Assembly (NCBI GenBank): GCA_965227295.1
Contig: OZ245742.1
Span: 4,512,001 to 4,576,000 of the forward strand
Source: Leptonemataceae bacterium
GTDB taxonomy: Bacteria > Spirochaetota > Leptospiria > Leptospirales > Leptonemataceae
Length of the DNA stretch: 64,000 bases
Direction: 5' to 3'
The translations under genes were made by a program, and so were the position numbers. Under the pieces are notes generated by a model. That model was not told the origin of the DNA and did not search any database. It saw only the letters and a program-made list of their open reading frames with translations. Positions 31,101 through 44,899 of the stretch are shown piece by piece (the stretch's first letter is position 1; each line of letters opens with the position of its first letter).

Positions 31101-32998
31101 TTGAAAAGCTTAAATACTCTGGCGACTCTTTCGAATATGAATCGCCGACACTTGGACCTGGGATAAATATCCTCGAAGGGGCGAACGCTACGGGAAAGAC
31201 TACTTTCACGAATCTCATATACTATGGACTCGGCGGCCATGTAGAAGAATTCCGCGCGAATGCAAAAGAACGACATGCCGAAATAACCGGAGATAAGAAC
31301 AACTTCGTCGACCTGTTCATCCGAATCAATGAAACGCCATACCAACTTCGTCGTTACATCGGAGATCCGAACATAGGCATCACCCACGAAACAATCACAA
31401 TCACTCGCACTTTGGACCGAAGAGAGTCGAGCGAAACGTTCTCCGACTGGCTACTTGACAAGCTTGGATTCGAAATTTTTGAGATTTTTCAAGGTTCTCA
31501 CAATTGGAGGATCAACTTTACGGACCTCGCTCGCCTAATCTACCATGACCAGAACACTGGCAACGTACGAAGCATATTCAAAGCTCCAGACACATCGTTC
31601 TTCTTGTCCGACTCTGCCAGCACGAGGAAGATAATATTTGAAGTTCTTACAGGAAAGACGTTTAACGATTACTACTCCACTCTTGGCAAGACAAGGCGGG
31701 CCGACCAACAGCGACAGGTGACAAAGGAGACTCTTCGGCGATTTATTGAGATAGCCGCGACACTACACTCTGAGAATCAACCCAAGAACAGCGACTTCAT
31801 TGAAGCCGCGTTACGCGAAAAACAGACTCAGCACGAGAAGTTAGAAGAATCACGACGAGCCCTTCAATCCAACGCACCCCAAGCCGGGGCAGGACTGCGT
31901 CAGCGCATCTCTGAGAAGACGAGTGAATTGACAGCCCAGCAACATAAACGTGTTGAGTTTAACTCCAAGAGATCCAGACAAATAGGGGAAGTTGTCAAAC
32001 TCCGGAATCTTAGAGAAGATCGCATCTTAGAAGCAACTCAGATGCGGAAGATTATCTACTCCCATGACGAACTAAAGCTCTTTTCCCCAAATACTTGCCC
32101 CTACTGCCTTCGAGAAATCGACAGAAACGCCGGTGCGTGCGTCTGTGGGAAGCCTATCAATGAAGAGGACTACGAAAAATTCTTTTACGATCGCGAGGAA
32201 TATCTGGATATCTTGAAGGCGAAGCAAAAGTCCATAGAAACAATTGAGATAGCGATCGAATCAGTATCAAAGGACCTGAAAGCGACGGAGGGGCAACTAA
32301 GAAACATAGATGAATTAATAAAAGGAAGCTCAACCGAAATCGAAAACTTGTCACGAGACATCGAAACGGGAATTGACCTATCTGCATTCAATGAGATTGA
32401 AAACAAGCTTCTGGGAGTCCGCTCTGAAATACAAGACCTACAAAAGGACTTAGAACTCAGAACACAGCAGGACATCATCGAGAAAGAACACGAGGAAAAT
32501 GAAAATGAGTATAAACGACTGCTCGCCGCAAGCAAGAGTTTAGAACTAGAGGCAGCACAGGCCATGGAAGAAATACTTGAAATATTTTCCAAAAAATACA
32601 AGGAACTGATCCGCTCATCTCTGCCAGAAGTAAATACGGCCGCAATTCAAGAGGATTACATGCCTGTCATAGATGGCGGAATATATAAACAAGCAAGCTC
32701 GGCCGTACCACGCCGACTCCTCTATTACTTCGCCCTACTTCACATTTCGCTACAGCATCCTACCGTGCTCTTCCCACGTTTACTGATTATCGACACACCA
32801 GAGAACCTCGGGATAGACTATGACGTATTTATGGACACGCTTCAGGCACTAGAGGCTGTCATCCCCGCCGGCAAAGAAGAACAATATCAAGTAATTCTGT
32901 CCACAGGAGTTAATAAATATCCAGAGTCATATGCAGAGTATGTCTTCGAGAGTCTGTCCACGGACAATCGCCTACTTAAAGAAGTAGGGCCTGAATAG
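31085..32998 (+). CDS. SMC/Rad50-like ABC ATPase (LmuB-like)
   Basis: Walker A GANATGKT, coiled coils with CPYC..CVC hook, Walker B LIIDTP. Confidence 0.8.
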   Translation: MGRLLIEKLKYSGDSFEYESPTLGPGINILEGANATGKTTFTNLIYYGLGGHVEEFRANAKERHAEITGDKNNFVDLFIRINETPYQLRRYIGDPNIGITHETITITRTLDRRESSETFSDWLLDKLGFEIFEIFQGSHNWRINFTDLARLIYHDQNTGNVRSIFKAPDTSFFLSDSASTRKIIFEVLTGKTFNDYYSTLGKTRRADQQRQVTKETLRRFIEIAATLHSENQPKNSDFIEAALREKQTQHEKLEESRRALQSNAPQAGAGLRQRISEKTSELTAQQHKRVEFNSKRSRQIGEVVKLRNLREDRILEATQMRKIIYSHDELKLFSPNTCPYCLREIDRNAGACVCGKPINEEDYEKFFYDREEYLDILKAKQKSIETIEIAIESVSKDLKATEGQLRNIDELIKGSSTEIENLSRDIETGIDLSAFNEIENKLLGVRSEIQDLQKDLELRTQQDIIEKEHEENENEYKRLLAASKSLELEAAQAMEEILEIFSKKYKELIRSSLPEVNTAAIQEDYMPVIDGGIYKQASSAVPRRLLYYFALLHISLQHPTVLFPRLLIIDTPENLGIDYDVFMDTLQALEAVIPAGKEEQYQVILSTGVNKYPESYAEYVFESLSTDNRLLKEVGPE

Positions 32999-33011: not shown

Positions 33012-33746
33012 ACCCGTCTTATCGAAGCGATCGACGGCGCCGTGGCTACGCTTCAATTTACCGGAGCCTACGCCGAACGTCTCGGCCGCCTCTTCGAGGG
33101 GGCGATGACTCAGCAAGCGTCGAATTTCAAATCGGACCAGAAGTATATCCGGTTGAAGTGCGAAAGCCTGGATCAGCAGATCCGGCGGTTATACAGAGAA
33201 TACGCGGCCAGCGAACCAGCCGCCGCGCGGCAGATCATGGAAACCATCCGCGAAATGCAGGATGAAATCAAGACGCTGGAGAAAAAAGGCCAGAGCCTGC
33301 GCGCGGAAGACTTCGAGATCAACAACACCATCCTGCGATACATTGAAGAACTGCGGACGATTCCGGAAAAGTATCTGGCGGCGCGGACCACTGCGGAGAA
33401 AGCGAAACTTCTGCGAAACATGGTGCGCGCGATCTACGTGGACGGCGACGAGGTCATTTTCGACTGGCAAGAGCCGTATGCCTTCCTGGCGGACGAAGGC
33501 ATCTATCTGGCACTCACGAAACCGCGCGGGGGCTGGAAGAGCGGTGGTAAGCTCGCGGCGCAGCGCGCCGCCGCGAGCTTACCACCGCACACCCCGCAAA
33601 TGTCAGGGTGTTCGATTCCGTTTACTTCTGCGGAGCCAGCGAAACGCAGATCGAAAAAGCTGTCCGTGGAAGCGGAGATCGCCGCGCATATCCGGCTGAT
33701 GTTTCGGTTCTGGATGGCCGGCAAGAAACTTGCTGCCCACGGCTGA
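33012..33746 (+). pseudogene. 5'-truncated duplicate of serine recombinase 3' end with alternative (attP-type) C-terminus
   Basis: Identical to 27490-28113 reversed, then continues SAEPAKRRSKK..AAHG* after the CTCCGCAGAA core. Confidence 0.75.
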
Positions 33747-33954: not shown

Positions 33955-34379
33955 GTGGGGCGTGTGGCCACAGAGAACGGACGCGATCAGCGGAGCGATC
34001 ACGGAAAGAACTCACGGAAAGAACTCACGGAAAGAGGGCAAACATCACATGAGATATTGTTAGAGATTAAAGCACCAGGTGCCGCTGAAATCGAGTCCAC
34101 CTGGCAAGAACCCAACTGGATTATATATACGTCAATCGCGGCGACCAAAGACGTCCACGCTAACATATCTCGGCCGAACTCTAACCCCCGCCGCCCAGGT
34201 CGTGTCGTTTTTCTGGACAATCAAGGGAGTTCGAATTTCACGGCCAGCGCCGAGATCCCGCCGCGCACATCGTCGGTAATGCATCTGTGTATTTTGTGTG
34301 CGACGTCACGAAACCGCCGTACATAAATAGCGCGTGCAGGCGAAAACCCACCGGGTCTTCGCCTGCACGCGCGCGAACG

Positions 34380-34712
34380 TCACCAGCTCCAGCCGATTTC
34401 CTTTAACTGCTCCTTTTCTTCGGCTACGTCTTCTAACAGGTGGTCGGCGATCCGTTGCCAGTCCACTTTTTCGATGGCCCCCTGGAGTAACTCGCGCAAC
34501 AGTTCGGGAAGTTCGAGCCTGTGCAGATACTCCCGGTGACGATCTCTCAAGTGCGTGGCGAGTTGTTCTTCCTCGCCGTCACGAACACAATCGCAGGCAA
34601 TGCCCATAAACAAATCGTTGGTCGCCGTGTCTTTGTACATGCGCTCAGACACACACCACGTTTCGTAGTTGCCCCAACCGCAATAGTATTCGTTACTCCT
34701 TCCAGCCGTCAT
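34380..34712 (-). CDS. Hypothetical mobile-element protein (GWxNYETW motif, DUF7249-like), copy A
   Basis: YCGWGNYETWCV..VDWQRIA; third gene of overlapping operon. Confidence 0.6.
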   Translation of the reverse strand: MTAGRSNEYYCGWGNYETWCVSERMYKDTATNDLFMGIACDCVRDGEEEQLATHLRDRHREYLHRLELPELLRELLQGAIEKVDWQRIADHLLEDVAEEKEQLKEIGWSW

Positions 34713-34896
34713 CGCAGAGGACCTTCTCCGGCTCTTTGCCGATCAATTCCCGGAGCGGCGGACGCTTACGCAGGTCCGCCGCAATGAGATTGCGAATGTG
34801 CTGTGCCGTGTTCGCGAAGCGCGTGCGCAATTCGTAGCGCATGTCTTCGCTGATGCCGACCAGATACTGAACTGATTTTCTTCCCGGGTCTTTCAT
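34693..34896 (-). CDS. Small protein, possible ribbon-helix-helix, copy A
   Basis: MKDPGRKSVQYLVGISEDMRYELR..; SD AGGAGG; ATGA overlap. Confidence 0.45.
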   Translation of the reverse strand: MKDPGRKSVQYLVGISEDMRYELRTRFANTAQHIRNLIAADLRKRPPLRELIGKEPEKVLCDDGWKE

Positions 34897-35366
34897 GCTT
34901 CGGCCTCCTGGTCCAGGTCGTCGAAGAGCGGGTAGAAACGAGTGCTTTTCGGCGCTCCCAGGTAACACGCGCGGCGGAGTTCCTGGTCCCACTCGCAAGC
35001 GACCTGTTGAAGTTCGAGAAACACTTCTCGATTTACTTTTAAGAGGGAATTCAGCCGGGACGGCTGCGGTACCTTCACCGGGGTGTAGACCTCTTTGAAT
35101 TCACCGGTAGTTTCACTGGCGAGCAGAAACGGAAACCACTCATTGTCCGCCGTGATTTCGAACTGCATTTCGCGAGCGCACAGCCAGCGGCCGTTTGCTT
35201 GCTTGATGAACTGCGAAACGCCCAGGGCGGGGCGAGCGGTTGGACCCTCTCCCAGAAACTCGATGACGAGCAGCGGGTATTCTTCGTGCTCCACGCGGAT
35301 GGACTCGCACTGCTTGAGCGCTTCCATGCCTTCGTGACTGACGATGATTTTCTGAATTGTTTCCAT
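34893..35366 (-). CDS. Hypothetical mobile-element protein (DUF6908-like), copy A
   Basis: SD GGAGG; LVIEFLGEGP..EMQFEI resembles DUF6908 from recollection. Confidence 0.55.
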   Translation of the reverse strand: METIQKIIVSHEGMEALKQCESIRVEHEEYPLLVIEFLGEGPTARPALGVSQFIKQANGRWLCAREMQFEITADNEWFPFLLASETTGEFKEVYTPVKVPQPSRLNSLLKVNREVFLELQQVACEWDQELRRACYLGAPKSTRFYPLFDDLDQEAEA

Positions 35367-35527
35367 GTGATAGATTCCTCCGGGGGAAGGCTAAACACAC
35401 GGCGGCATACTGCAAGTTTAAACTCAAGGAAAGTTAATTTTTTGCTGACAAAAGCCCGGAGACATGCTAACATCACGAAATGTTACTCTAGTAAATGTCG
35501 ATGCACGAGGTCGCCCGCTTCTCTCTT

Positions 35528-35600
35528 TCAGGGGTGCGGGATTCGAACCCACTTCCCGGGGGACACAGTCCCGGATGTTAGCCGCATACACCAACCCCTA
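35528..35600 (-). tRNA. trnH: tRNA-His(GUG), array 1
   Basis: Loop CT-GTG-TC; GTTCGAATCC; one anticodon-stem mismatch. Confidence 0.75.
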
Positions 35601-35605
35601 TTGAA

Positions 35606-35679
35606 AATCCCGGCGAGGACTCGAACCCCGATCGACGGGGATAGAAGCCCCGTGCTTTTTCCCGTTAAGCTACCGGGAT
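35606..35679 (-). tRNA. trnR: tRNA-Arg(UCU), array 1
   Basis: CGGGG-CTTCTAT-CCCCG anticodon arm. Confidence 0.85.
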
Positions 35680-35682
35680 ACT

Positions 35683-35755
35683 TCGAAGCGGCTGGAATCG
35701 AACCAACACCAACGGCATATCAGAGCGTCGTTCTCAACCGTTAAACTACGCTTCG
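35683..35755 (-). tRNA. trnI: tRNA-Ile(GAU), array 1
   Basis: Loop CT-GAT-AT; acceptor CGAAGCG/CGCTTCG. Confidence 0.8.
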
Positions 35756-35759
35756 TATG

Positions 35760-35830
35760 CACCACGTAGGGGAGTCGAACCCCTGCTACTCGATCGACAA
35801 TCGGGCGTTCTACCGTTAAACTAATGCGGC
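35760..35830 (-). tRNA. trnD: tRNA-Asp(GUC), array 1
   Basis: Loop TT-GTC-GA; G73. Confidence 0.8.
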
Positions 35831-35836
35831 AAACTG

Positions 35837-35910
35837 TAGGGCCCGCGGGACTCGAACCCGCAATCTCCAGATTCGTAATCTGATGCCTTGATCCATTTGG
35901 CCAGGGCCCT
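35837..35910 (-). tRNA. trnR: tRNA-Arg(ACG), array 1
   Basis: TCAGA-TTACGAA-TCTGG. Confidence 0.9.
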
Positions 35911-35913
35911 GTG

Positions 35914-35987
35914 TTGGACTTGCAGGACTCGAACCTGCGGCCTTCCGCCTCGGAAGCGGGTGCTCTTTCCCTCTGAGCTAAAGTCCA
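35914..35987 (-). tRNA. trnR: tRNA-Arg(CCG), array 1
   Basis: CCCGC-TTCCGAG-GCGGA. Confidence 0.85.
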
Positions 35988-35990
35988 GTG

Positions 35991-36061
35991 TGGAGCCGGT
36001 GGGAATCGAACCCACATCTGTTGCTTGCAAAACAAAGATTCTCCCGTTAAACTACGGCCCC
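35991..36061 (-). tRNA. trnA: tRNA-Ala(UGC), array 1
   Basis: Loop TT-TGC-AA; G3:U70 identity pair. Confidence 0.85.
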
Positions 36062-36064
36062 GTG

Positions 36065-36138
36065 TACGGGCTGCTGGATTCGAACCAGCGATCTCCTGTT
36101 TGTAAGACAGGCGTTCTGACCTGCTAAACTAAGCCCGT
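36065..36138 (-). tRNA. trnV: tRNA-Val(UAC), array 1
   Basis: CCTGT-CTTACAA-ACAGG. Confidence 0.9.
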
Positions 36139-36141
36139 GTG

Positions 36142-36213
36142 TTGCGGCGAAAGGAATTGAACCTCCGTAGGACGGGTTATGAGCCCGTTGCATCGCCACT
36201 ATGCTACACCGCA
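36142..36213 (-). tRNA. trnM: tRNA-Met(CAU), initiator-like, array 1
   Basis: ACGGG-CTCATAA-CCCGT with three consecutive G-C pairs; TTCAA T-loop. Confidence 0.85.
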
Positions 36214-36219
36214 ATGTTT

Positions 36220-36294
36220 TGCCCGGTGCATGGATTCGAACCTGCAACCAGCGGTTTACAAAACCGCCGCTCTAACCATTGGAGCTAACCGGGC
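36220..36294 (-). tRNA. trnT: tRNA-Thr(UGU), array 1
   Basis: GCGGT-TTTGTAA-ACCGC. Confidence 0.9.
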
Positions 36295-36297
36295 GTG

Positions 36298-36369
36298 TGC
36301 ATCAGCAGGGAATCGAACCCTGATGATCTGCTTGGAAGACAGACATGTTGGCCGTTACATCACTGATGC
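36298..36369 (-). tRNA. trnG: tRNA-Gly(UCC), array 1
   Basis: TCTGT-CTTCCAA-GCAGA. Confidence 0.85.
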
Positions 36370-36373
36370 GTAT

Positions 36374-36447
36374 TCGTCGGGTTCGGGATCGAACCGAATT
36401 CTCTCGCTTTTCAGGCGAGCGCTCATGACCACACCTGCTCCCCGACG
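36374..36447 (-). tRNA. trnF: tRNA-Phe(GAA), array 1
   Basis: CTCGC-CTGAAAA-GCGAG. Confidence 0.8.
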
Positions 36448-36504
36448 TTCGTCTTGTTCTTCTTAAAGTCACTTTCGCTCATATTTACTCCTTAGTGCGA
36501 AATG

Positions 36505-36576
36505 TGGGTCCGGTGGGATTCGAACCCACGGCCATCCGATTAAAAGTCGGATGCTCTACCCCCGAGCTCCGGACCC
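36505..36576 (-). tRNA. trnK: tRNA-Lys(UUU), array 1
   Basis: TCCGA-CTTTTAA-TCGGA. Confidence 0.9.
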
Positions 36577-36577
36577 G

Positions 36578-36616
36578 CTATTCTCTAAATGTCTTCTTGT
36601 CATCTTCGCTCTTCAT
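36578..36616 (-). CDS. Mini-ORF MKSEDDKKTFRE between tRNA-Gly and tRNA-Lys
   Basis: SD AGGAG; identical peptide in array 2 with synonymous ACA/ACG change. Confidence 0.4.
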   Translation of the reverse strand: MKSEDDKKTFRE

Positions 36617-36641
36617 GGCGTATCTCCTGTTGCTTATGATG

Positions 36642-36714
36642 TGCACCGCAAGAGACTCGAACTCTTCCCTGCTGCATGGCACACAGCTATGCTTGCCACT
36701 AACACCAGCGATGC
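36642..36714 (-). tRNA. trnG: tRNA-Gly(GCC), array 1
   Basis: GCTGT-GTGCCAT-GCAGC. Confidence 0.8.
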
Positions 36715-36723
36715 GTTTAAACG

Positions 36724-36757
36724 AAAAAACCCTCCAGGGAGTCGGCCGGGGAGGGTT
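36724..36757 (-). terminator. Attenuator terminator before 14-tRNA cluster, array 1
   Basis: AACCCTCC..GGAGGGTT stem plus U-tract. Confidence 0.8.
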
Positions 36758-36784
36758 CTTCATGAATGCGTTTGCAGATTCTTC

Positions 36785-36901
36785 TCAGCAACGCATGCGC
36801 AGAACTCCTCCGGCGATCCGGCCGTCCTTATGGCCCGCATCGATCCGCATCCCGATAAATCGGGCGGTTCTCACAACCGTTGCTGTTACTGTTAAGCTCA
36901 T
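36785..36901 (-). CDS. Leader peptide MSLTVTATVVRTARFIGMRIDAGHKDGRIAGGVLRMRC (array 1)
   Basis: 38 codons; residues 4-33 are exclusively amino acids of the downstream tRNAs; 3' part complementary to terminator 5' arm. Confidence 0.75.
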   Translation of the reverse strand: MSLTVTATVVRTARFIGMRIDAGHKDGRIAGGVLRMRC

Positions 36902-36951
36902 GATAGAATACTCAGACGAATCCCTTGTTAAATTTCTTATAAAAATATCTT

Positions 36952-37023
36952 TGCCGACGCAGGGAATCGAAACCTGATTACCGCAGTGAAAGTGCGAGGT
37001 CCTTGCCTTTAGACGACGCCGGC
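36952..37023 (-). tRNA. trnE: tRNA-Glu(UUC), array 1
   Basis: TCGCA-CTTTCAC-TGCGG; T-stem has one mismatch in this copy. Confidence 0.75.
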
Positions 37024-37119
37024 GATTTGAGTTGAAACGTAGTTAGGTCCACGTTCCCGTTCTCGCGGCATCGCTCCAGCTGACACGTATGTACGTCCTG
37101 CGCGGTTCATTATACTATG

Positions 37120-37190
37120 AGACATGGGTGGGATTCGAACCCACGTAAACGGCTTTGCAGACCGCCCGCTGGCCTCTCGCGCACCATGTC
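37120..37190 (-). tRNA. trnC: tRNA-Cys(GCA), array 1
   Basis: GCGGT-CTGCAAA-GCCGT; U73. Confidence 0.8.
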
Positions 37191-37285
37191 GGGTTTACTC
37201 TGGCTTGCGGCGGTCGGTAACATCGTTCTCTGTCTTCCATATCTCCCTCATAACACTTGAAAAATAAGCAAAATGCCCATAAACG

Positions 37286-37319
37286 AAAAAAGGCGAGCCG
37301 TTGATCCGGGCTCGCCTTT
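37286..37319 (-). terminator. Attenuator terminator before Cys/Glu tRNAs, array 1
   Basis: AAAGGCGAGCC..GGCTCGCCTTT plus U-tract. Confidence 0.8.
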
Positions 37320-37343
37320 CGCATCCAGCAGGTTACACTGAAT

Positions 37344-37451
37344 CTAAGACGAGCGCATGACTCCCTGAAACACATCACGCTCACAACCCGCATGAATCAT
37401 GCCGGCCTTCGCGAGGTCTCGTTCCGTTCTATGTTGGCGCTTCGGCGACAT
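37344..37451 (-). CDS. Leader peptide MSPKRQHRTERDLAKAGMIHAGCERDVFQGVMRSS (array 1)
   Basis: 35 codons downstream of a TTGACG -35 box; GCTCGTCTT at 3' end pairs with terminator 5' arm. Confidence 0.55.
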   Translation of the reverse strand: MSPKRQHRTERDLAKAGMIHAGCERDVFQGVMRSS

Positions 37452-37531
37452 TCCGTTTCCTGAATACTTACTTGGTATTCGACGTCAACAACTTCATAAA
37501 GATTTAAATATTTTTTTCATGGAACTCAATG

Positions 37532-37604
37532 TTCCGGGAGATGGATTCGAACCATCAACCCCCGACTTCAAAGGCCGGTGTTCTACCCGTTGAACTACCC
37601 CGGA
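37532..37604 (-). tRNA. trnQ: tRNA-Gln(UUG), array 1
   Basis: CCGGC-CTTTGAA-GTCGG; U1-A72. Confidence 0.85.
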
Positions 37605-37612
37605 ATGAGTTG

Positions 37613-37684
37613 CACCGGAGGCAGGACTCGAACCTGCATAGAACGCATTAACATTGCGTCGCCTTACCATTAGGCTACTCCGGT
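37613..37684 (-). tRNA. trnN: tRNA-Asn(GUU), array 1
   Basis: ACGCA-ATGTTAA-TGCGT; G73. Confidence 0.85.
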
Positions 37685-37688
37685 ATTC

Positions 37689-37766
37689 TGGCAGAGGGAA
37701 CAGGATTCGAACCTGTGAACATCGGATTTGGAGTCCGACAGCTTGGACCGCTCGACTCATCCCTCT
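37689..37766 (-). tRNA. trnW: tRNA-Trp(CCA), array 1
   Basis: TCGGA-CTCCAAA-TCCGA; encoded GCCA end. Confidence 0.85.
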
Positions 37767-37769
37767 ATG

Positions 37770-37842
37770 TCGGCGTGGTGGGACTTGAACCCACGACCCC
37801 CGGTTCCCGAAACCGGTGCTCTACACCCTGAGCTATACGCCG
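37770..37842 (-). tRNA. trnP: tRNA-Pro(CGG), array 1
   Basis: CCGGT-TTCGGGA-ACCGG; C1-G72, A73. Confidence 0.9.
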
Positions 37843-37848
37843 GATAAT

Positions 37849-37882
37849 AAAAAACCCCCTCAAGCTTCCGCCGGAGGGGGTT
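37849..37882 (-). terminator. Attenuator terminator before Pro/Trp/Asn/Gln tRNAs, array 1
   Basis: AACCCCCTC..GAGGGGGTT plus U-tract, ending 7 nt before tRNA-Pro. Confidence 0.85.
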
Positions 37883-37911
37883 CTCGCGCAAACGCGCTGT
37901 TGCTCAGAGCA

Positions 37912-37983
37912 CTACACGACCACCTCCAGGCAGATGCCGGGATTCTGTTGGGGCCAGTTGCTCTGTGGGAAAAACATGCTCAT
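37912..37983 (-). CDS. Leader peptide MSMFFPQSNWPQQNPGICLEVVV (array 1)
   Basis: P/Q/N/W make up 9 of 10 consecutive codons; in-frame 6-nt indel relative to array 2. Confidence 0.8.
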   Translation of the reverse strand: MSMFFPQSNWPQQNPGICLEVVV

Positions 37984-38087
37984 CACGTTTACCTGAAGTT
38001 AAGAGACGACGGTTTTCGAGAAATCCTTAACGAAAATATATTTTTTGGAACGAAAGCTTCGCTTTGCCTCGTCTCATCTACCGTATC

Positions 38088-38156
38088 ATGAACGGTATGT
38101 TACTATCATCGCTGTATCTTCTCAGCTCCGGCGGCATGCGGGAGGCGGCGATGTAG
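38088..38156 (+). CDS. Leader peptide MNGMLLSSLYLLSSGGMREAAM (array 1)
   Basis: Ten consecutive L/S/Y codons, each a different codon; precedes Tyr/Ser/Leu tRNAs. Confidence 0.82.
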   Translation: MNGMLLSSLYLLSSGGMREAAM

Positions 38157-38184
38157 TACGCGCAGACAGTTTTCTGTCTTCGAG

Positions 38185-38224
38185 AAGCCCCTCCCGGTGA
38201 ACCCGCGAGGGGCTTTTTGTTTTT
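38185..38224 (+). terminator. Attenuator terminator before Tyr/Ser/Leu tRNAs, array 1
   Basis: AAGCCCCTC..GAGGGGCTT plus TTTGTTTTT. Confidence 0.85.
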
Positions 38225-38228
38225 AAAC

Positions 38229-38315
38229 GCGCTGCTTTCCTCCTGCCGGTCTGTAAAGCCGGGGTCGTTAAACGAGGAGGTCGGGAGACGAGAGGTTCAA
38301 ATCCTCGGCAGCGCA
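38229..38315 (+). tRNA. trnY: Atypical tRNA-Tyr(GUA)-like gene lacking canonical D-arm, array 1
   Basis: Acceptor GCGCTGC/GCAGCGC, CCGGT-CTGTAAA-GCCGG, GTTCAAATCC; only 10 nt between acceptor and anticodon stems. Confidence 0.65.
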
Positions 38316-38319
38316 TACT

Positions 38320-38403
38320 GGATAGATGCCCGAGTGGTAAGGGACCCGTTTCGAAAACGGAGGTCGGCGGTTCGTCGCGTGGGTTCGATTCCTACTCTAT
38401 CCG
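38320..38403 (+). tRNA. trnS: tRNA-Ser(CGA), array 1
   Basis: Loop TT-CGA-AA; long variable arm; G73. Confidence 0.85.
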
Positions 38404-38409
38404 CATTAC

Positions 38410-38493
38410 GGAGGGATGACCGAGTGGTAAGGTATCCGGTTGGAAGCCGGTGGTCATCGATGAGATGCGAAGGTTCGATTCCTTCTCCCTCCG
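38410..38493 (+). tRNA. trnS: tRNA-Ser(GGA), array 1
   Basis: Loop TT-GGA-AG; long variable arm; G73. Confidence 0.85.
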
Positions 38494-38499
38494 AGAAAT

Positions 38500-38584
38500 G
38501 GAACAGTGGCCGAGAGGTAAGGCAGCGGTCCGCTAAACCGTGGTCGTCGTAACAGACGCGGAGGTTCGATTCCTCCCTGTTCCG
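38500..38584 (+). tRNA. trnS: tRNA-Ser(GCU), array 1
   Basis: GCGGT-CCGCTAA-ACCGT (C33); long variable arm. Confidence 0.85.
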
Positions 38585-38587
38585 CAG

Positions 38588-38662
38588 CGAGCGATAGCCC
38601 AATCAGGCAGAGGCAGTCGACTTAAAATCGGCAGAGTGCGGGTTCGATTCCCGCTCGCTCAA
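38588..38662 (+). tRNA. trnL: tRNA-Leu(UAA), short variable loop, array 1
   Basis: GTCGA-CTTAAAA-TCGGC. Confidence 0.85.
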
Positions 38663-38665
38663 AAC

Positions 38666-38738
38666 GCATCCGTAGCCCAACGGTAGAGGCACCAGGTCGA
38701 GAGCCTGGTCAGTGCAGGTTCGAATCCGGCCGGATGCA
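38666..38738 (+). tRNA. trnL: tRNA-Leu(GAG), short variable loop, array 1
   Basis: CCAGG-TCGAGAG-CCTGG (C33). Confidence 0.75.
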
Positions 38739-38741
38739 CAC

Positions 38742-38814
38742 GGGGACGTAGCCCAACGGCAGAGGCAGCACGCTCAGAACGTGTCCAGTGTGAGTTCGAA
38801 TCTCGCCGCCCCCA
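38742..38814 (+). tRNA. trnL: tRNA-Leu(CAG), short variable loop, array 1
   Basis: GCACG-CTCAGAA-CGTGT. Confidence 0.85.
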
Positions 38815-38985
38815 TAGAGTCTCCACTGAAGAGATTTGCGACCTCGTGCATCGACATTTACTAGAGTAACATTTCGTGATGTTAGCATGTCTCCGGGCTT
38901 TTGTCAGCAAAAAATTAACTTTCCTTGAGTTTAAACTTGCAGTATGCCGCCGTGTGTTTAGCCTTCCCCCGGAGGAATCTATCAC

Positions 38986-39459
38986 ATGGAAACAATTCAG
39001 AAAATCATCGTCAGTCACGAAGGCATGGAAGCGCTCAAGCAGTGCGAGTCCATCCGCGTGGAGCACGAAGAATACCCGCTGCTCGTCATCGAGTTTCTGG
39101 GAGAGGGTCCAACCGCTCGCCCCGCCCTGGGCGTTTCGCAGTTCATCAAGCAAGCAAACGGCCGCTGGCTGTGCGCTCGCGAAATGCAGTTCGAAATCAC
39201 GGCGGACAATGAGTGGTTTCCGTTTCTGCTCGCCAGTGAAACTACCGGTGAATTCAAAGAGGTCTACACCCCGGTGAAGGTACCGCAGCCGTCCCGGCTG
39301 AATTCCCTCTTAAAAGTAAATCGAGAAGTGTTTCTCGAACTTCAACAGGTCGCTTGCGAGTGGGACCAGGAACTCCGCCGCGCGTGTTACCTGGGAGCGC
39401 CGAAAAGCACTCGTTTCTACCCGCTCTTCGACGACCTGGACCAGGAGGCCGAAGCATGA
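38986..39459 (+). CDS. Hypothetical mobile-element protein (DUF6908-like), copy B
   Basis: Identical to 34893-35366. Confidence 0.55.
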   Translation: METIQKIIVSHEGMEALKQCESIRVEHEEYPLLVIEFLGEGPTARPALGVSQFIKQANGRWLCAREMQFEITADNEWFPFLLASETTGEFKEVYTPVKVPQPSRLNSLLKVNREVFLELQQVACEWDQELRRACYLGAPKSTRFYPLFDDLDQEAEA

Positions 39460-39659
39460 AAGACCCGGGAAGAAAATCAGTTCAGTATCTGGTCGGCATC
39501 AGCGAAGACATGCGCTACGAATTGCGCACGCGCTTCGCGAACACGGCACAGCACATTCGCAATCTCATTGCGGCGGACCTGCGTAAGCGTCCGCCGCTCC
39601 GGGAATTGATCGGCAAAGAGCCGGAGAAGGTCCTCTGCGATGACGGCTGGAAGGAGTAA
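39456..39659 (+). CDS. Small protein, possible ribbon-helix-helix, copy B
   Basis: Identical to 34693-34896. Confidence 0.45.
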   Translation: MKDPGRKSVQYLVGISEDMRYELRTRFANTAQHIRNLIAADLRKRPPLRELIGKEPEKVLCDDGWKE

Positions 39660-39972
39660 CGAATACTATTGCGGTTGGGGCAACTACGAAACGTGGTGTG
39701 TGTCTGAGCGCATGTACAAAGACACGGCGACCAACGATTTGTTTATGGGCATTGCCTGCGATTGTGTTCGTGACGGCGAGGAAGAACAACTCGCCACGCA
39801 CTTGAGAGATCGTCACCGGGAGTATCTGCACAGGCTCGAACTTCCCGAACTGTTGCGCGAGTTACTCCAGGGGGCCATCGAAAAAGTGGACTGGCAACGG
39901 ATCGCCGACCACCTGTTAGAAGACGTAGCCGAAGAAAAGGAGCAGTTAAAGGAAATCGGCTGGAGCTGGTGA
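39640..39972 (+). CDS. Hypothetical protein (DUF7249-like), copy B
   Basis: Identical to 34380-34712. Confidence 0.6.
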   Translation: MTAGRSNEYYCGWGNYETWCVSERMYKDTATNDLFMGIACDCVRDGEEEQLATHLRDRHREYLHRLELPELLRELLQGAIEKVDWQRIADHLLEDVAEEKEQLKEIGWSW

Positions 39973-39982
39973 CGTTCGCGCG

Positions 39983-40028
39983 CGTGCAGGCGAAGACCCG
40001 GTGGGTTTTCGCCTGCACGCGCTATTTA
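39983..40028 (+). terminator. Long hairpin after 3-gene operon (mirror copy near 34325-34370)
   Basis: GCGTGCAGGCGAAGACCC..GGGTTTTCGCCTGCACGC followed by TATTTAT. Confidence 0.6.
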
Positions 40029-40316
40029 TGTACGGCGGTTTCGTGACGTCGCACACAAAATACACAGATGCATTACCGACGATGTGCGCGGCGGGATCTC
40101 GGCGCTGGCCGTGAAATTCGAACTCCCTTGATTGTCCAGAAAAACGACACGACCTGGGCGGCGGGGGTTAGAGTTCGGCCGAGATATGTTAGCGTGGACG
40201 TCTTTGGTCGCCGCGATTGACGTATATATAATCCAGTTGGGTTCTTGCCAGGTGGACTCGATTTCAGCGGCACCTGGTGCTTTAATCTCTAACAATATCT
40301 CATGTGATGTTTGCCC

Positions 40317-41328
40317 TCTTTCCGTGAGTTCTTTCCGTGAGTTCTTTCCGTGAGTTCTTTCCGTGAGTTCTTTCCGTGAGTTCTTTCCGTGAGTTCTTTC
40401 CGTGAGTTCTTTCCGTGAGTTCTTTCCGTGAGTTCTTTCCGTGAGTTCTTTCCGTGAGTTCTTTCCGTGAGTTCTTTCCGTGAGTTCTTTCCGTGAGTTC
40501 TTTCCGTGAGTTCTTTCCGTGAGTTCTTTCCGTGAGTTCTTTCCGTGAGTTCTTTCCGTGAGTTCTTTCCGTGAGTTCTTTCCGTGAGTTCTTTCCGTGA
40601 GTTCTTTCCGTGAGTTCTTTCCGTGAGTTCTTTCCGTGAGTTCTTTCCGTGAGTTCTTTCCGTGAGTTCTTTCCGTGAGTTCTTTCCGTGAGTTCTTTCC
40701 GTGAGTTCTTTCCGTGAGTTCTTTCCGTGAGTTCTTTCCGTGAGTTCTTTCCGTGAGTTCTTTCCGTGAGTTCTTTCCGTGAGTTCTTTCCGTGAGTTCT
40801 TTCCGTGAGTTCTTTCCGTGAGTTCTTTCCGTGAGTTCTTTCCGTGAGTTCTTTCCGTGAGTTCTTTCCGTGAGTTCTTTCCGTGAGTTCTTTCCGTGAG
40901 TTCTTTCCGTGAGTTCTTTCCGTGAGTTCTTTCCGTGAGTTCTTTCCGTGAGTTCTTTCCGTGAGTTCTTTCCGTGAGTTCTTTCCGTGAGTTCTTTCCG
41001 TGAGTTCTTTCCGTGAGTTCTTTCCGTGAGTTCTTTCCGTGAGTTCTTTCCGTGAGTTCTTTCCGTGAGTTCTTTCCGTGAGTTCTTTCCGTGAGTTCTT
41101 TCCGTGAGTTCTTTCCGTGAGTTCTTTCCGTGAGTTCTTTCCGTGAGTTCTTTCCGTGAGTTCTTTCCGTGAGTTCTTTCCGTGAGTTCTTTCCGTGAGT
41201 TCTTTCCGTGAGTTCTTTCCGTGAGTTCTTTCCGTGAGTTCTTTCCGTGAGTTCTTTCCGTGAGTTCTTTCCGTGAGTTCTTTCCGTGAGTTCTTTCCGT
41301 GAGTTCTTTCCGTGAGTTCTTTCCGTGA
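40317..41328. repeat. Perfect 13-bp tandem repeat (TCTTTCCGTGAGT), about 78 copies
   Basis: Directly visible; 1012 nt / 13; no spacers. Confidence 0.97.
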
Positions 41329-41356
41329 TCGCTCCGCTGATCGCGTCCGTTCTCTG

Positions 41357-43340
41357 GTCGCGGTAGAACGGCCGGTTGCCCGGCCGCCCCCGCACAGATC
41401 CCGGCGTGCGGTATTCTCGCACCGGGCTCTTCGAAAGCACTCGCTTCCACATAAAGTCAATTCAGAGTAAGTCGCAACTGAGATACTGGTCGTTCCATGA
41501 TGCGCGGTTTTTCGATCCGGTAGTGCGCCATCAGATCCCTCAGCCCCTGCCAGTCCAGACTCCGGCGCTGACTGCGCCGATTGAGCCACTTGTACAGATT
41601 CATTTCCACCTGATAGTAGAAGCTTCGTATACTCTTGTAGTTGCATTGGACGCCATAATAGTTATAGTATCCACGCAGCCGGGAGTTCAGAAGATTGAAG
41701 AACCTGCGCATGGGTAGATGCCGATTCGCTTTAATCCACTGCTTCACATTCTGGATCGACGCATGCAATCGCTTTGGAGCGGTGCGACGCGGAACCCACC
41801 AGAACCCCTTTCGAGAACGAGCCCAGCGGTATTCAAAGCCTAGAAATACGAACGCCTCACGCCCGGTATTGAACTTCGCGCGGAAGCCCGGGCGCTCGAA
41901 ACTTTTCACTCCTGACTTTTCCGGCGCCAGTTCCAGACCAAACTTTCGCAAACGTTTTCCAAGCGTCGCATAGAATTTCAGCGCATCGTCTTTGGATTCA
42001 AAGGCGCAAACAAAATCGTCCGCGTATCGACACATATAGGCCGGTCTCTTGCAGTGCTTCTTCACCACTTTCTCGAACCAGAGGTCCAGTACGTAATGAA
42101 GATAGACGTTCGCCAGAACCGGACTGATCACGCCGCCTTGAGGAGTCCCAGCGGTCGGGCGCGAGACCTGACCGTTTACCTCCAGCACGCCTGCTTTCAG
42201 CCACTTGCGAATCAGACCGAGAAAGGCCCGATCATCGATTCGTTGCTCCAGCATTCGCATCAACCAATCATGGTCAATGTTGTCGAAGAAACCCTTGATG
42301 TCGGCTTCCACAATCCAGCCGAGCTTCCCCGGACTCAAAGTTGAACTCAGAGTCTTCGAAGCCTCACGCGGACCGGTGTTCGGCCGATAACCATACGAAC
42401 ACGACAGGAAGTCTTGCTCATAGATCGCTTCAAGGATACGCGTCGCGCATGTTTGTACCAGTTTGTCTTCGAGGGCCGGCAATCCAAGCGGACGTTGTTT
42501 TCCGTCCGCTTTCGGGATAAAGACCCTGCGAATCAGTTTTGTTCGGTATCGTTTCTGTTTTAAGCGTTCCACCAGATCCCCGACATTTTCCGTAAGGTTC
42601 GCTTCGTAGTCGCGAAACGTTTCACGGTCCACGCCCGGAGCCGCCCGGCGATTCATTCCTGCGAACGAATCTTCGAGATTCATCTGGTTGAGCATCCCAT
42701 ACAGATTACGAAACAGATGTTTCTTACTCCTCCTCGCTTTATTTGCTATTGCCCGTAGTGAGGTTTGCATCAGTTGTTCCGATCCTGCCGTCCGGCTGAT
42801 GTTGACTCTGCGAGCTGCGTACTTTCGTCAGCCCCTTCCCCGATCATCGCGCATCGCACGCGAAGACCGAACCCGTCGAAACTCCATTCGAGTTTCATTC
42901 GATTCTGTGGACGGCTCTCCCGCCCTCTGAGTACTATGGGCTGATCCGACTCCCCGTTGATCATCATTCTTCCTTGTTCATTCGGTCAGAATTACCTTCG
43001 CTATCGTCGAAGGAACCAACGGGGTCTCCCGGGTTCCACGATGTTTCTCTGCATACATGCCGCGCTCAAGCGACCCCGACAGACCTCCAGAATCTCGCTA
43101 AAACGATTCCTTTGTGCTGGTTTCCATCTGACCAATGATGTCACCGTCTGCATCTATGGCATTTTACGAGGCTCAACAGCTTCCGGGAGTGTGGACTCCC
43201 CTACGGCCTGCATGCTTCCCTGTGTACGCTTCGTGTGGCGGTTACCCGCTTCCACGCAACACTCGGTAGAAGTTGTTCGCTAAACTTTACTTCATATGGA
43301 CTTTCACCTTATCAGAAACATCGGGCTTTGCCCGGCGCAC
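41357..43340 (-). mobile_element. Group II intron, 1984 nt
   Basis: 5' GTGCG at 43340; domain V GAGCCCGGTGCGAGAATACCGCACGCCGGGATC; 3' ..CTACCGCGAC; exons rejoin to TGGCCA|CAGAGAAC seen intact at 33965-33978. Confidence 0.95.
41457..42770 (-). CDS. ltrA: Group II intron reverse transcriptase/maturase without endonuclease domain
   Basis: IPKADGKQRPLG, SYGYRP, EADIKGFFD, PQGG, RYADD, FLGF, domain X LRGYYNYY; no C-terminal HNH. Confidence 0.95.
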   Translation of the reverse strand: MQTSLRAIANKARRSKKHLFRNLYGMLNQMNLEDSFAGMNRRAAPGVDRETFRDYEANLTENVGDLVERLKQKRYRTKLIRRVFIPKADGKQRPLGLPALEDKLVQTCATRILEAIYEQDFLSCSYGYRPNTGPREASKTLSSTLSPGKLGWIVEADIKGFFDNIDHDWLMRMLEQRIDDRAFLGLIRKWLKAGVLEVNGQVSRPTAGTPQGGVISPVLANVYLHYVLDLWFEKVVKKHCKRPAYMCRYADDFVCAFESKDDALKFYATLGKRLRKFGLELAPEKSGVKSFERPGFRAKFNTGREAFVFLGFEYRWARSRKGFWWVPRRTAPKRLHASIQNVKQWIKANRHLPMRRFFNLLNSRLRGYYNYYGVQCNYKSIRSFYYQVEMNLYKWLNRRSQRRSLDWQGLRDLMAHYRIEKPRIMERPVSQLRLTLN

Positions 43341-43505
43341 TGGCCACACGCCCCACGCATTTGTGGCCACAAATTCAGCCGTGGGCAGCAAGTTTCTTGC
43401 CGGCCATCCAGAACCGAAACATCAGCCGGATATGCGCGGCGATCTCCGCTTCCACGGACAGCTTTTTCGATCTGCGTTTCGCTGGCTCCGCAGAAAAATT
43501 GATCC

Positions 43506-43661
43506 ATGACCTACTTCGACCACTGCATAACCAACGCCGGCTCGGAAGGGATGAATTCACGAATCCAGGCGATCAAAACTCGCGCCCGGGGCTTCCGAAA
43601 CTTCGCCCATTACCGGGCCTCGATCCTCTCTCATTGCGGGGATTTAGAGCTTTATCCGTGA
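43506..43661 (+). pseudogene. ISL3-family transposase C-terminal fragment
   Basis: Translates TYFDHCITNAGSEGMNSRIQAIKTRARGFRNFAHYRASILSHCGDLELYP*, typical ISL3 C-terminus; not in ORF track. Confidence 0.8.
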
Positions 43662-43681
43662 AAATTCCTGAAGATGGACGC

Positions 43682-43799
43682 ACATGGCGGCATATTACAA
43701 GTTTAAACTCAAGGAAAGTTAATTTTTTGCTGACAAAATCCTGGAGACATGCTAACATCACGCAATGTTACTCTAGTAAATGTCGATGCACGAGATCGC
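43682..43799. repeat. ~118-bp inverted repeat flanking array 2 (partner ~47543-47660), homologous to inner ends of array 1 arms
   Basis: AAGTTTAAACTCAAGGAAAGTTAATTTTTTGCTGACAAAA..GTTACTCTAGTAAAT present at all four array ends. Confidence 0.85.
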
Positions 43800-43822
43800 A
43801 AATCTCTTCAATGGAGACTATA

Positions 43823-43955
43823 TGGGGACGGTGAGACTCGAACTCACACTAGACACGTTCTGAGCGTGCTGCCTCTACCGCGAATGTAAGCAGTTGCTCC
43901 CGGGTGGTCGCAACTGCGGCGGTTCAGACTGCTTCGCAGTCTGGGCTACGGATGC
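43823..43955 (-). pseudogene. trnL: Chimeric tRNA-Leu (5' end of GAG gene, body of CAG gene) with ~61-nt D-loop insertion, array 2
   Basis: GCATCCGTAGCCCA + insert 43881-43941 + CGGTAGAGGCAGCACGCTCAGAA..CGTCCCCA; acceptor strands do not match. Confidence 0.8.
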
Positions 43956-43958
43956 GTT

Positions 43959-44033
43959 TCGAGCGAGCGGGAATCGAACCCGCACTCTGCCGATTTTAAG
44001 TCGACTGCCTCTGCCTGATTGGGCTATCGCTCG
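43959..44033 (-). tRNA. trnL: tRNA-Leu(UAA), array 2
   Basis: Near-identical to 38588-38662. Confidence 0.85.
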
Positions 44034-44036
44034 CTG

Positions 44037-44121
44037 CGGAACAGGGAGGAATCGAACCTCCGCGTCTGTTACGACGACCACGGTTTAGCGGACCGCTGCC
44101 TTACCTCTCGGCCACTGTTCC
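44037..44121 (-). tRNA. trnS: tRNA-Ser(GCU), array 2
   Basis: Matches 38500-38584. Confidence 0.85.
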
Positions 44122-44127
44122 AATTTC

Positions 44128-44212
44128 CGGAGGGAGAAGGAATCGAACCTTCGCGCCTGTTAAGACGACCGCCGGCTTCCAACCGGATACCTTACCACTC
44201 GGTCATCCCTCC
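44128..44212 (-). tRNA. trnS: tRNA-Ser(GGA), array 2
   Basis: Matches 38410-38493 with different variable arm. Confidence 0.85.
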
Positions 44213-44218
44213 ACGCTG

Positions 44219-44302
44219 CGGATAGAGTAGGAATCGAACCCACGCGACGAACCGCCGACCTCCGTTTTCGAAACGGGTCCCTTACCACTCGGGCATCTAT
44301 CC
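44219..44302 (-). tRNA. trnS: tRNA-Ser(CGA), array 2
   Basis: Matches 38320-38403. Confidence 0.85.
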
Positions 44303-44306
44303 AGTA

Positions 44307-44443
44307 TGCGCTGCCGAGGATTTGAACCTCTCGTCACCCGACCTCCTCGTTTAACGAGTAAACTGTACCTTGCTGCGCAAGCCTTGACTTACTACCGCCT
44401 TTCAGTTGCTGGCGTTTACAGACCGGCAGGAGGAAAGCAGCGC
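44307..44443 (-). pseudogene. trnY: Atypical tRNA-Tyr(GUA) interrupted by ~55-nt insertion, array 2
   Basis: Matches 38229-38315 except extra sequence ~44358-44413 at 3' side of anticodon stem. Confidence 0.7.
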
Positions 44444-44447
44444 GTTT

Positions 44448-44487: not shown

Positions 44488-44515
44488 CTCGAAGACAGAG
44501 AACTGTCCGCGCGTA

Positions 44516-44896: not shown

Positions 44897-44899
44897 CAT

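Follow-up and report, generated by a model that had tools for sequence, protein, structure and literature searches.

What controls a transfer RNA (tRNA) operon that starts just behind an intrinsic terminator, and why would the short open reading frame (ORF) ahead of that terminator spell out the amino acids of the tRNAs that follow? The question is raised by a 64,000-nucleotide stretch of the chromosome of a Leptonemataceae bacterium (contig OZ245742.1, positions 4,512,001 to 4,576,000 of the forward strand; hereafter the window, to which coordinates refer unless another locus is named), where an ORF rich in Pro, Gln, Asn and Trp codons (the P/Q/N/W leader) and a terminator precede genes for tRNA-Pro, tRNA-Trp, tRNA-Asn and tRNA-Gln. 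We read this element, with a probability of about 0.7, as a ribosome-mediated (leader-peptide) transcription attenuator gating the Pro/Trp/Asn/Gln tRNA operon of a horizontally acquired tRNA array. The reading had been anticipated by a first-pass annotation of the sequence and is supported by the composition of the leader, the geometry of the terminator, an antiterminator pairing that none of 300 shuffled sequences equalled, sister units in the same array and comparable units in unrelated arrays.

The leader ORF names the amino acids of the tRNAs behind it

The leader, the codon run at its center and the genes that it precedes are arranged as follows.
37912 to 37983, minus strand: leader ORF, copy 1, with ATG at 37983, an in-frame GTG at 37986 and stop codon TAG at 37914 to 37912; peptide MSMFFPQSNWPQQNPGICLEVVV, then stop
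37939 to 37968, minus strand: regulatory codon run PQSNWPQQNP, codons 6 to 15 (CCA CAG AGC AAC TGG CCC CAA CAG AAT CCC)
37991 to 37994, minus strand: weak candidate Shine-Dalgarno-like element AGGU, 7 nucleotides (nt) upstream of the ATG, proposed from sequence
37842 to 37769, minus strand: tRNA-Pro(cgg), called by ARAGORN, as are the next three genes
37766 to 37689, minus strand: tRNA-Trp(cca)
37684 to 37612, minus strand: tRNA-Asn(gtt)
37604 to 37531, minus strand: tRNA-Gln(ttg)
37531 to 37842, minus strand: the gated four-gene block as a whole

The leader comprises 23 codons and, with the alternative start, reads M(M)SMFFPQSNWPQQNPGICLEVVV followed by a stop. Nine of the ten codons from 6 to 15 encode Pro, Gln, Asn or Trp, as annotated initially. 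Among all stop-free ten-codon windows in the six frames of the 64-kb window (n = 100,702), at least nine such codons were reached by two only, and both are copies of this leader. The same four amino acids account for 12.3% of residues in 23 long host ORFs, and their enrichment in the leader is beyond chance. The claim that they correspond to the tRNAs downstream also held, as tRNA-Pro, tRNA-Trp, tRNA-Asn and tRNA-Gln are the next genes. The locus thus combines a short ORF, a start codon and a ribosome-binding signal, albeit a weak one, with a cluster of codons cognate to the tRNAs that follow.

The second copy of the leader lies at the head of another tRNA array (array 2).
44686 to 44754, plus strand: leader ORF, copy 2, (M)MHFPQSNWPQQNPGICLEVVV, then stop
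44686 to 44820, plus strand: copy 2 leader (MMHFPQSNWPQQNPGICLEVVV, then stop) with its terminator, upstream of the tRNA-Pro of array 2 (44824 to 44897)
43959 to 47530: array 2, a mirrored and decayed copy of the array under study (array 1) with inserted repeats

The two leaders differ at the N-terminus only, where MHF replaces MSMFF through a 6-nt gap and three substituted bases. The in-frame indel noted in the first-pass annotation is therefore real, but the coding constraint that it was taken to indicate gains little from it, since it is a single event between near-identical copies with a one-in-three chance of falling in frame. Array 2 itself has been disrupted by five copies of an insert of ~109 nt (at 44926, 45659, 46578, 46860 and 47064; 61–100% identical to the reference copy). 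Its tRNA-Trp is interrupted, its tRNA-Gln truncated, and two further tRNAs have Rfam matches stretched to 112–118 nt. Despite this decay, the leader and terminator of array 2 are intact.

A terminator and a competing antiterminator separate the leader from the tRNA genes

Four elements of RNA structure were identified within and directly behind the leader.
37950 to 37965, minus strand: region 1, codons 7 to 12 (CAGAGCAACUGGCCCC), paired with region 2 in the minimum free energy structure of the free full-length RNA
37905 to 37934, minus strand: region 2, running from the final codons through the stop to a few bases past it; the predicted antiterminator arm is its 5' part (UCUGCCUGGAGGU)
37886 to 37897, minus strand: small hairpin GCGC-GUUU-GCGC, directly upstream of the terminator
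37845 to 37885, minus strand: intrinsic terminator with a 12+3 bp stem (-24.5 kcal/mol) and a U-run

The terminator stands between the leader and the genes, its stem beginning 28 nt after the TAG of the leader and its end lying 9 nt before tRNA-Pro. This 9-nt gap is too short for a promoter, so that the tRNA genes can be reached only by read-through of the terminator. The free RNA (38000-43, minus strand) folds into the region 1:region 2 hairpin, the GCGC hairpin and the terminator with a z-score of -3.6, and comparable small hairpins occur in the divergent L/S/Y unit and the Micrococcaceae leaders described below.

Region 2 is also complementary to the 5' arm of the terminator. The best duplex between them reaches -15.9 kcal/mol, compared to -8.3 ± 2.0 kcal/mol for 300 dinucleotide shuffles of the upstream RNA, none of which did as well. 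Contained in this duplex is the pairing that had been proposed for array 2, which was confirmed: CTGGAGGTGGT (44737 to 44747) and ACCCCCTCCGG (44785 to 44795) form 10 of 11 possible pairs with a duplex energy of -14.9 kcal/mol. A ribosome terminating at the stop codon would cover the antiterminator arm, which falls within the final codons of the ORF.

Folding the whole RNA at equilibrium with a ribosome mask did not discriminate between ribosome positions, and folds of nascent RNA were therefore adopted, in which the transcript was cut upstream of the terminator 3' arm and 30 nt around the A-site codon were masked as an assumed ribosome footprint. The probability that the terminator 5' arm is sequestered by upstream sequence was 0.77 with the A site at codons 2–14, 0.51 at codon 15 (the last Pro of the run) and 0.24–0.27 at codons 16–24. 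In this model, the antiterminator persists if the ribosome is held up within the P/Q/N/W run or short of it, and is lost once the ribosome has come to the end of the ORF. The dependence of the antiterminator on ribosome position is thus one predicted in silico.

Leader units occur in both branches of array 1

Array 1 extends beyond the four genes considered so far.
35528 to 38814, both strands: array 1, 3.3 kb, 26 of the 42 tRNA genes that ARAGORN called in the whole window

The minus strand carries 20 genes (Pro, Trp, Asn, Gln, Cys, Glu, Gly, Lys, Phe, Gly, Thr, Met, Val, Ala, Arg, Arg, Asp, Ile, Arg and His), and the plus strand six, three for tRNA-Ser and three for tRNA-Leu. When a leader unit was defined as a terminator no further than 130 nt ahead of a tRNA gene together with an ORF whose stop lies at most 90 nt from the terminator stem, array 1 yielded four, with stop-to-stem distances of 28 (P/Q/N/W), 24, 24 and 26 nt. 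The amino-acid sets of the four leaders combined cover all 20 amino acids.
38088 to 38229, plus strand: L/S/Y unit, divergent; leader MNGMLLSSLYLLSSGGMREAAM, then stop; terminator upstream of a tRNA-Tyr-like element, three tRNA-Ser and three tRNA-Leu
37281 to 37451, minus strand: unit W3; leader MSPKRQHRTERDLAKAGMIHAGCERDVFQGVMRSS, then stop; terminator (37289 to 37319) upstream of tRNA-Cys, tRNA-Glu and the rest of the minus-strand array
36727 to 36901, minus strand: unit W4; leader MSLTVTATVVRTARFIGMRIDAGHKDGRIAGGVLRMRC, then stop; terminator (36727 to 36758) 12 nt upstream of tRNA-Gly and 13 further tRNAs

The two branches of array 1 diverge across a 104-bp spacer, the L/S/Y leader starting 104 bp from the P/Q/N/W leader. 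The spacer (37987 to 38087) is 60% A+T and its core (38010 to 38050) 71%, the island as a whole being 48%, which bears out the earlier description of a divergent L/S/Y leader across an AT-rich intergenic region of ~100 bp. Ten of ten consecutive codons in this leader encode Leu, Ser or Tyr, which is matched by 3 of the 100,702 windows, two of them leader copies. These ten codons are all different, and eight can be read by the downstream tRNAs (10 of 100,702 windows as good). The L/S/Y antiterminator reaches -21.7 kcal/mol versus -12.6 ± 2.3 kcal/mol for shuffles (0 of 300 as good), and the modeled sequestration of the terminator 5' arm is 0.33 without a ribosome, 0.77–0.80 with a ribosome at codons 2–10 and 0.32–0.51 from codon 11 onward. 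According to the model, this unit has a true anti-antiterminator.

Of the 38 residues of the W4 leader, 34 belong to the 11 amino acids served by the 14 downstream tRNAs, and all 11 are present (22 of 58,034 windows as good). By comparison of codons and anticodons, this leader samples all three Arg and both Gly isoacceptors. Its antiterminator (-18.0 versus -12.1 ± 2.2 kcal/mol; 2 of 300 shuffles as good) gives a modeled sequestration of 0.84–1.00 with the ribosome at codons 2–26, which hold all 11 cognate amino acids, and of 0.29–0.39 at codons 27–37. The W3 leader likewise contains all 13 downstream amino acids, with 28 of 35 residues in the set (151 of 61,067 windows as good); at the codon level its support is weak (25 of 34 codons readable, p about 0.06). 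An interpretation of W3 as a Cys/Glu-rich leader was rejected, as 2 of 18 residues fitted, and the reading from an upstream ATG led by a Shine-Dalgarno sequence was preferred. In a cross-assignment of leaders to tRNA sets, three of the four (P/Q/N/W, L/S/Y and W4) scored best on their own set; the third row of that comparison, which does not fit best, represents the shorter W3 reading against Cys and Glu alone.

The tRNA-Tyr-like element directly downstream of the L/S/Y terminator (38230 to 38318, plus strand) was called by neither ARAGORN nor Rfam. It has an acceptor stem (GCGCUGC/GCAGCGC), a loop CUGUAAA with anticodon GUA, a T-arm and a long extra arm, and is devoid of an ordinary D-arm. 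A copy in array 2 (~44303 to 44440, minus strand) has an insertion of ~50 nt beside the anticodon arm.

Leader and terminator recur in unrelated tRNA arrays

The same combination of leader and terminator, in unrelated sequence, was found in Actinoplanes cyaneus, five Micrococcaceae plasmids and a Pseudomonas megaplasmid. These cases come from 13 array loci, namely two Actinoplanes loci of a genome scan and a set of plasmid arrays, and the leader units concerned are all unannotated. The A. cyaneus unit (locus L002, 8655 to 8865) consists of a Shine-Dalgarno sequence, a 49-codon ORF and a terminator, the last of these 13 nt upstream of the first of 19 tRNAs. These tRNAs can read 45 of 48 leader codons (4 of 22,673 windows as good), and the peptide omits Asn, Cys, Phe and Tyr, the amino acids for which the array has no tRNA, while containing all 15 for which it has one (26 of 33,777 windows likewise).

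The Micrococcaceae plasmids (L006, 1612 to 1885; L009, L011, L012 and L013) carry homologous leaders of 50–52 codons with a conserved Shine-Dalgarno sequence. Their frame has been kept at a synonymous divergence (dS) of 0.16–1.07 and across several indels, with a ratio of nonsynonymous to synonymous divergence (dN/dS) of 0.42–0.93. All 20 amino acids are present in four of the five leaders and 19 in the fifth, a content found in 159 of 80,427 stop-free 50-codon windows (0.2%) of the Micrococcaceae loci. Four of the five retain the stretch GGCACCGAAG within their last four codons, L013 showing a single A-to-G change, and this stretch complements the conserved 5' arm of the terminator. A covariation argument based on the Cys-less leader of Arthrobacter caoxuetaonis was dropped, as a tRNA-Cys is still present ~9 kb past the run.

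In Pseudomonas sp. FeN3W the unit lies on the megaplasmid (L008, 14970 to 15044, minus strand of the locus). A rare-codon array that begins Ser, Ser, Pro, Ser, Ser, Pro, Pro, Thr, Thr, Leu stands there behind a TTGACA-17-TAATAT promoter, the leader MSISSSLPRSTRLMPSQA and a terminator. If ATA is read by one of the three CAU tRNAs, 14 of the 17 leader codons are readable (10 of 16,331 windows as good); without this assumption 13 are (21 of 16,331). A Nonomuraea plasmid (L003) gave one unit by the rule.

Arguments against attenuation and competing explanations

Several observations weigh against the attenuator reading. The Pro codons of the run (CCA, CCC and CCC) cannot be read by the sole tRNA-Pro of the array, whose CGG anticodon reads CCG, and CCG, which makes up 67% of host Pro codons, is absent from the leader. 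Six of the ten run codons are readable by the four downstream tRNAs, and the annotated match of leader and tRNAs therefore stands by amino acid throughout but at the codon level for Gln, Asn and Trp only. Product feedback cannot close for Pro, and a strict loop of that kind is disfavored by this mismatch together with the avoidance of CCG; what the leader would sense for Pro is the prolyl-tRNAs of the host rather than the product of the array. Codon rarity, by contrast, speaks for attenuation: the leaders of the array favor host-rare codons (CCA, 2% of Pro codons; TTA, 5%; CTA, 2%; TCA, 4%; AGA, 1%), as known attenuators do.

The folding results raise further objections. At equilibrium the full-length RNA retains the terminator at nine of ten tested ribosome positions, because the terminator (-24.5 kcal/mol) outweighs the antiterminator (-15 to -17 kcal/mol), and the decision must consequently be kinetic. 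The cut P/Q/N/W RNA is also predicted to form the antiterminator without any ribosome (0.76), in contrast to both the trp paradigm and the L/S/Y unit, so that the P/Q/N/W model is one of read-through unless a ribosome arrives in time and not the classical trp scheme. For the leaders of Actinoplanes (L002) and Paenarthrobacter (L006) the ribosome-mask model gave no clear switch, and the unit rule returned nothing in four of the 13 array loci, two on mycobacterial plasmids (L004 and L005), one on a Polaromonas plasmid (L007) and one on a Tsukamurella plasmid (L010). The Shine-Dalgarno-like element of the P/Q/N/W leader is AGGU only, a scan of the spacer found no sigma-70 consensus promoter, and additional tRNA has no obvious benefit during amino-acid starvation.

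Finally, no homologue of the P/Q/N/W leader was found apart from its two nearly identical copies in the window. Positions 37843 to 38320 gave no blastn match in plasmids and one irrelevant 74-nt match in phages, and the whole array matched phages and plasmids through single tRNAs only (at most 13% coverage). A scan of genome contigs with a fuzzy frame across the Pro-Trp-Asn-Gln genes pointed to two Actinoplanes arrays, via tRNA-Pro only, among at least 600 pattern matches listed. Protein searches with a codon-aligned antisense ORF and with the 46-residue W4 peptide of array 2 returned no homologue; the 23-residue peptide itself was not searched. For the P/Q/N/W leader the comparison covers two near-identical copies; analogous, non-homologous units in other arrays do keep frame, bias and pairings. 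Rfam scans gave no leader family match at E ≤ 1 (35000 to 48000), while at E ≤ 10 (37840 to 38240) the best matches were PyrR and rnk, with 16–18 bits compared to gathering scores of 54–55 and E-values of 2–5. The T-box covariance model had no match in either scan. On four sequence features the element belongs to the mechanistic class of leader-peptide attenuators, and it lies outside any curated leader family.

Part of this evidence would suit a general translational-stress sensor, in which any slowing of the ribosome (by antibiotics, ribosome damage or cold) would act as in the erm, cat and bmrCD leaders and the identity of the P/Q/N/W codons would be meaningless. The predicted default of antitermination without a timely ribosome and the Pro codons unmatched to the tRNA-Pro of the array are consistent with such a sensor, as is the induction of the Anabaena tRNA array by translation inhibitors, described in the accessible text of PMC8421152. 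Left unexplained, however, are the presence in one array of four leaders that each carry their own downstream amino acids and the codon-level match of the leaders of other arrays to their tRNA sets, which makes this explanation improbable.

It appears quite improbable that the hairpin merely keeps a cryptic array off, or insulates it, behind a chance ORF that is not translated. The poor transcription of long arrays reported in the accessible text of PMC8421152 would fit, and so would the weak Shine-Dalgarno-like element and the failure to find a consensus promoter or homologues. A chance ORF does not account for a composition seen in 2 of 100,702 windows, for an antiterminator complementarity equalled by none of 300 shuffles or for the repetition of the pattern in three sister units and in unrelated arrays. 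An RNA-only switch of T-box or PyrR type, which would bind tRNA or protein directly, with base pairing in place of a ribosome to read the codon run, can draw on the generic nature of the antiterminator/terminator architecture and on the sub-threshold PyrR and rnk matches. We regard it as very improbable, given that the Rfam scans found neither a T-box nor any other match at threshold, that the run is in frame between start and stop in all four units and that the Micrococcaceae leaders hold their frame over 50–52 codons despite much divergence. A gene for a small functional peptide with its own terminator, unrelated to the tRNAs, would agree with an intact ORF in two copies but is scarcely credible for 23 residues of low complexity, with no protein homologue of the antisense ORF or W4 (the 23-residue peptide itself not having been searched) and a terminator that leaves tRNA-Pro without space for a promoter.

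A proposed mechanism

Returning to the attenuator reading, we infer the direction and signal of regulation, the promoter and the translation of the ORF from the observed anatomy, composition, mutually exclusive pairings and parallels. Most likely, the switch turns the tRNA genes on only when translation falters. Transcription would start from a putative promoter in the AT-rich spacer, from which the L/S/Y unit also diverges, and the 23-codon leader would be translated while RNA polymerase approaches the terminator ahead of tRNA-Pro. A ribosome reaching the final codons and the stop in time would mask the antiterminator arm, allowing the terminator to form and keeping the tRNA genes silent. If the ribosome were instead delayed at the P/Q/N/W run, through scarcity of charged tRNAs or a general impairment of translation, the arm would pair with the terminator 5' arm and the polymerase would read through into the tRNA genes. 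As the codons of the sensor name the amino acids of the tRNAs under its control, the outcome would be a supply of tRNA on demand and silence otherwise.

A broader interpretation is offered tentatively. Mirror leaders, short translated ORFs with codons that list the tRNAs or amino acids encoded behind a terminator, may control access to the tRNA arrays of mobile elements across several phyla, which would make them a regulatory class that the searched literature does not describe. Such mirroring is perhaps modular in the array studied here (P/Q/N/W, L/S/Y, 13 and 11 amino acids) and might, in the Micrococcaceae plasmids, reach the full 20 amino acids within a single leader. Conceivably, an array of this kind is a self-testing backup kit for translation: idle as long as the tRNA pool of the host functions, it would come on one segment at a time as particular tRNAs run low, lose their charging or are cleaved. 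Anticodon nucleases deployed in conflicts between phage, plasmid and host could be the source of such cleavage, and a Lamassu system is present in the island.

If correct, the attenuator reading would explain how horizontally acquired, cryptic arrays stay silent and yet respond when translation fails. It would supply a rule, that the codon set of a leader mirrors the tRNA set downstream, which could be used for the annotation of arrays and the prediction of transcription units, and would provide natural sensors for the supply of individual tRNAs. The function of arrays would also become testable, be it as a backup under translational stress, as a source of rare-codon tRNAs for the mobile element or as a counter to tRNA-cleaving defenses.

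Genomic setting of the arrays

In the accessible text of a survey of such arrays (PMC4758250), a tRNA array unit is defined by at least 20 tRNA genes at a density of at least 2 per kb. With 26 genes in 3.3 kb, array 1 satisfies this definition, and it lies in an island of lower G+C content (~50% at about 28000 to 49000, in a chromosome of ~62%) that adjoins a tRNA-Ser(cga) gene (27409 to 27495). Judged from these sequence properties, array 1 is horizontally acquired.

Further short ORFs occur within array 1. One, MKSEDDKKTFRE followed by a stop (36578 to 36616, minus strand), ends 1 nt upstream of tRNA-Lys, and two that start at ~36490 (minus strand, just past tRNA-Lys) and ~37240 (minus strand, just before tRNA-Cys) run into the next tRNA gene. 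Short in-array ORFs carry strong Shine-Dalgarno sequences (AGGAG and GAGGGAG).

The island also contains several elements outside the arrays.
29324 to 32998, plus strand: Lamassu-type defense system, comprising LmuA (29324 to 30571, E = 2e-19), a 181-residue ORF without match and LmuB (31085 to 32998, E = 3e-53)
27490 to 28112 and 33013 to 33635: perfectly complementary inverted repeat pair of 623 nt, flanking an ORF with a recombinase domain and the Lamassu genes
33999 to 35514 and 38838 to 40353: perfectly complementary inverted repeat pair of 1516 nt, flanking array 1, with a DUF6908 ORF in each arm
40161 to about 41300: 13-nt tandem repeat of ~78 or more copies, between the arrays
41357 to 43304, minus strand: group II intron with Rfam matches to domains D1–D4 (130.7 bits) and domain V
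41457 to 42770: reverse-transcriptase/maturase ORF of the group II intron

For the Lamassu system, the nearest entries in the Atlas are AAA_23 ATPases, with Pseudomonadota as the commonest phylum. Both inverted-repeat pairs could represent invertible segments, recent duplications or an artefact of assembly.

Relation to known regulatory systems

Leader-peptide attenuators are known from the trp, his, leu, thr, pheA and ilv operons, and Rfam holds families for the Trp, His, Leu and Thr leaders. The P/Q/N/W unit resembles these attenuators of amino-acid operons in its short ORF, regulatory codon run, intrinsic terminator and mutually exclusive antiterminator, with ribosome position as the signal. 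It differs from them in that its targets are tRNA genes and not enzymes, its run mixes four amino acids that mirror four tRNAs, its predicted default without a ribosome is read-through and it matches no Rfam leader. The pheST operon of Escherichia coli, which encodes phenylalanyl-tRNA synthetase, is controlled by a leader-peptide attenuator (pheM), and T-box leaders control aminoacyl-tRNA synthetase genes without a ribosome. As in those systems, a component of the translation apparatus would here be regulated by sensing the charging of cognate tRNA; pheST and T-box leaders, however, control synthetase genes, whereas the P/Q/N/W unit targets the tRNA genes themselves.

Although leader-peptide attenuation is textbook knowledge for amino-acid biosynthesis operons, the literature accessible in part for this comparison (PMC1183508, PMC3082878) stating the principle for these, full-text searches, with subscription journals outside their coverage, found no description of its use on tRNA genes or arrays. 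The terms leader, attenuation and terminator are absent from the available main text of two array surveys (PMC4758250, PMC12803027) and of two studies of the Anabaena array (PMC8421152, PMC10272220), supplements being outside that scope, and the available text of a survey of premature terminators (PMC2965389) makes no mention of a tRNA gene or tRNA operon. Both the target, tRNA genes, and a leader that mirrors the downstream tRNA set appear to be undescribed. Stalling in a short upstream ORF also relieves attenuation in ermBL, the mef/mel leader, bmrCD and the mycobacterial polycysteine leaderless short ORFs, but what these sense, as far as the available text on them extends, is a drug or one amino acid, and the genes under their control encode proteins.

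The closest physiological parallel is found in the trn operon of Anabaena sp. PCC 7120, a long tRNA array that, according to the accessible text of PMC8421152, stays off by default and is induced once translation is compromised. Its control is ascribed in the same source and in the accessible part of PMC10272220 to direct repeats in the promoter and the repressor TrcR. Array 1 resembles trn, so far as described there, as a horizontally acquired long tRNA array for which silence until translation is impaired is proposed here; unlike the promoter repeats and repressor of trn, the control in array 1 would be exerted by units of an ORF and a terminator.

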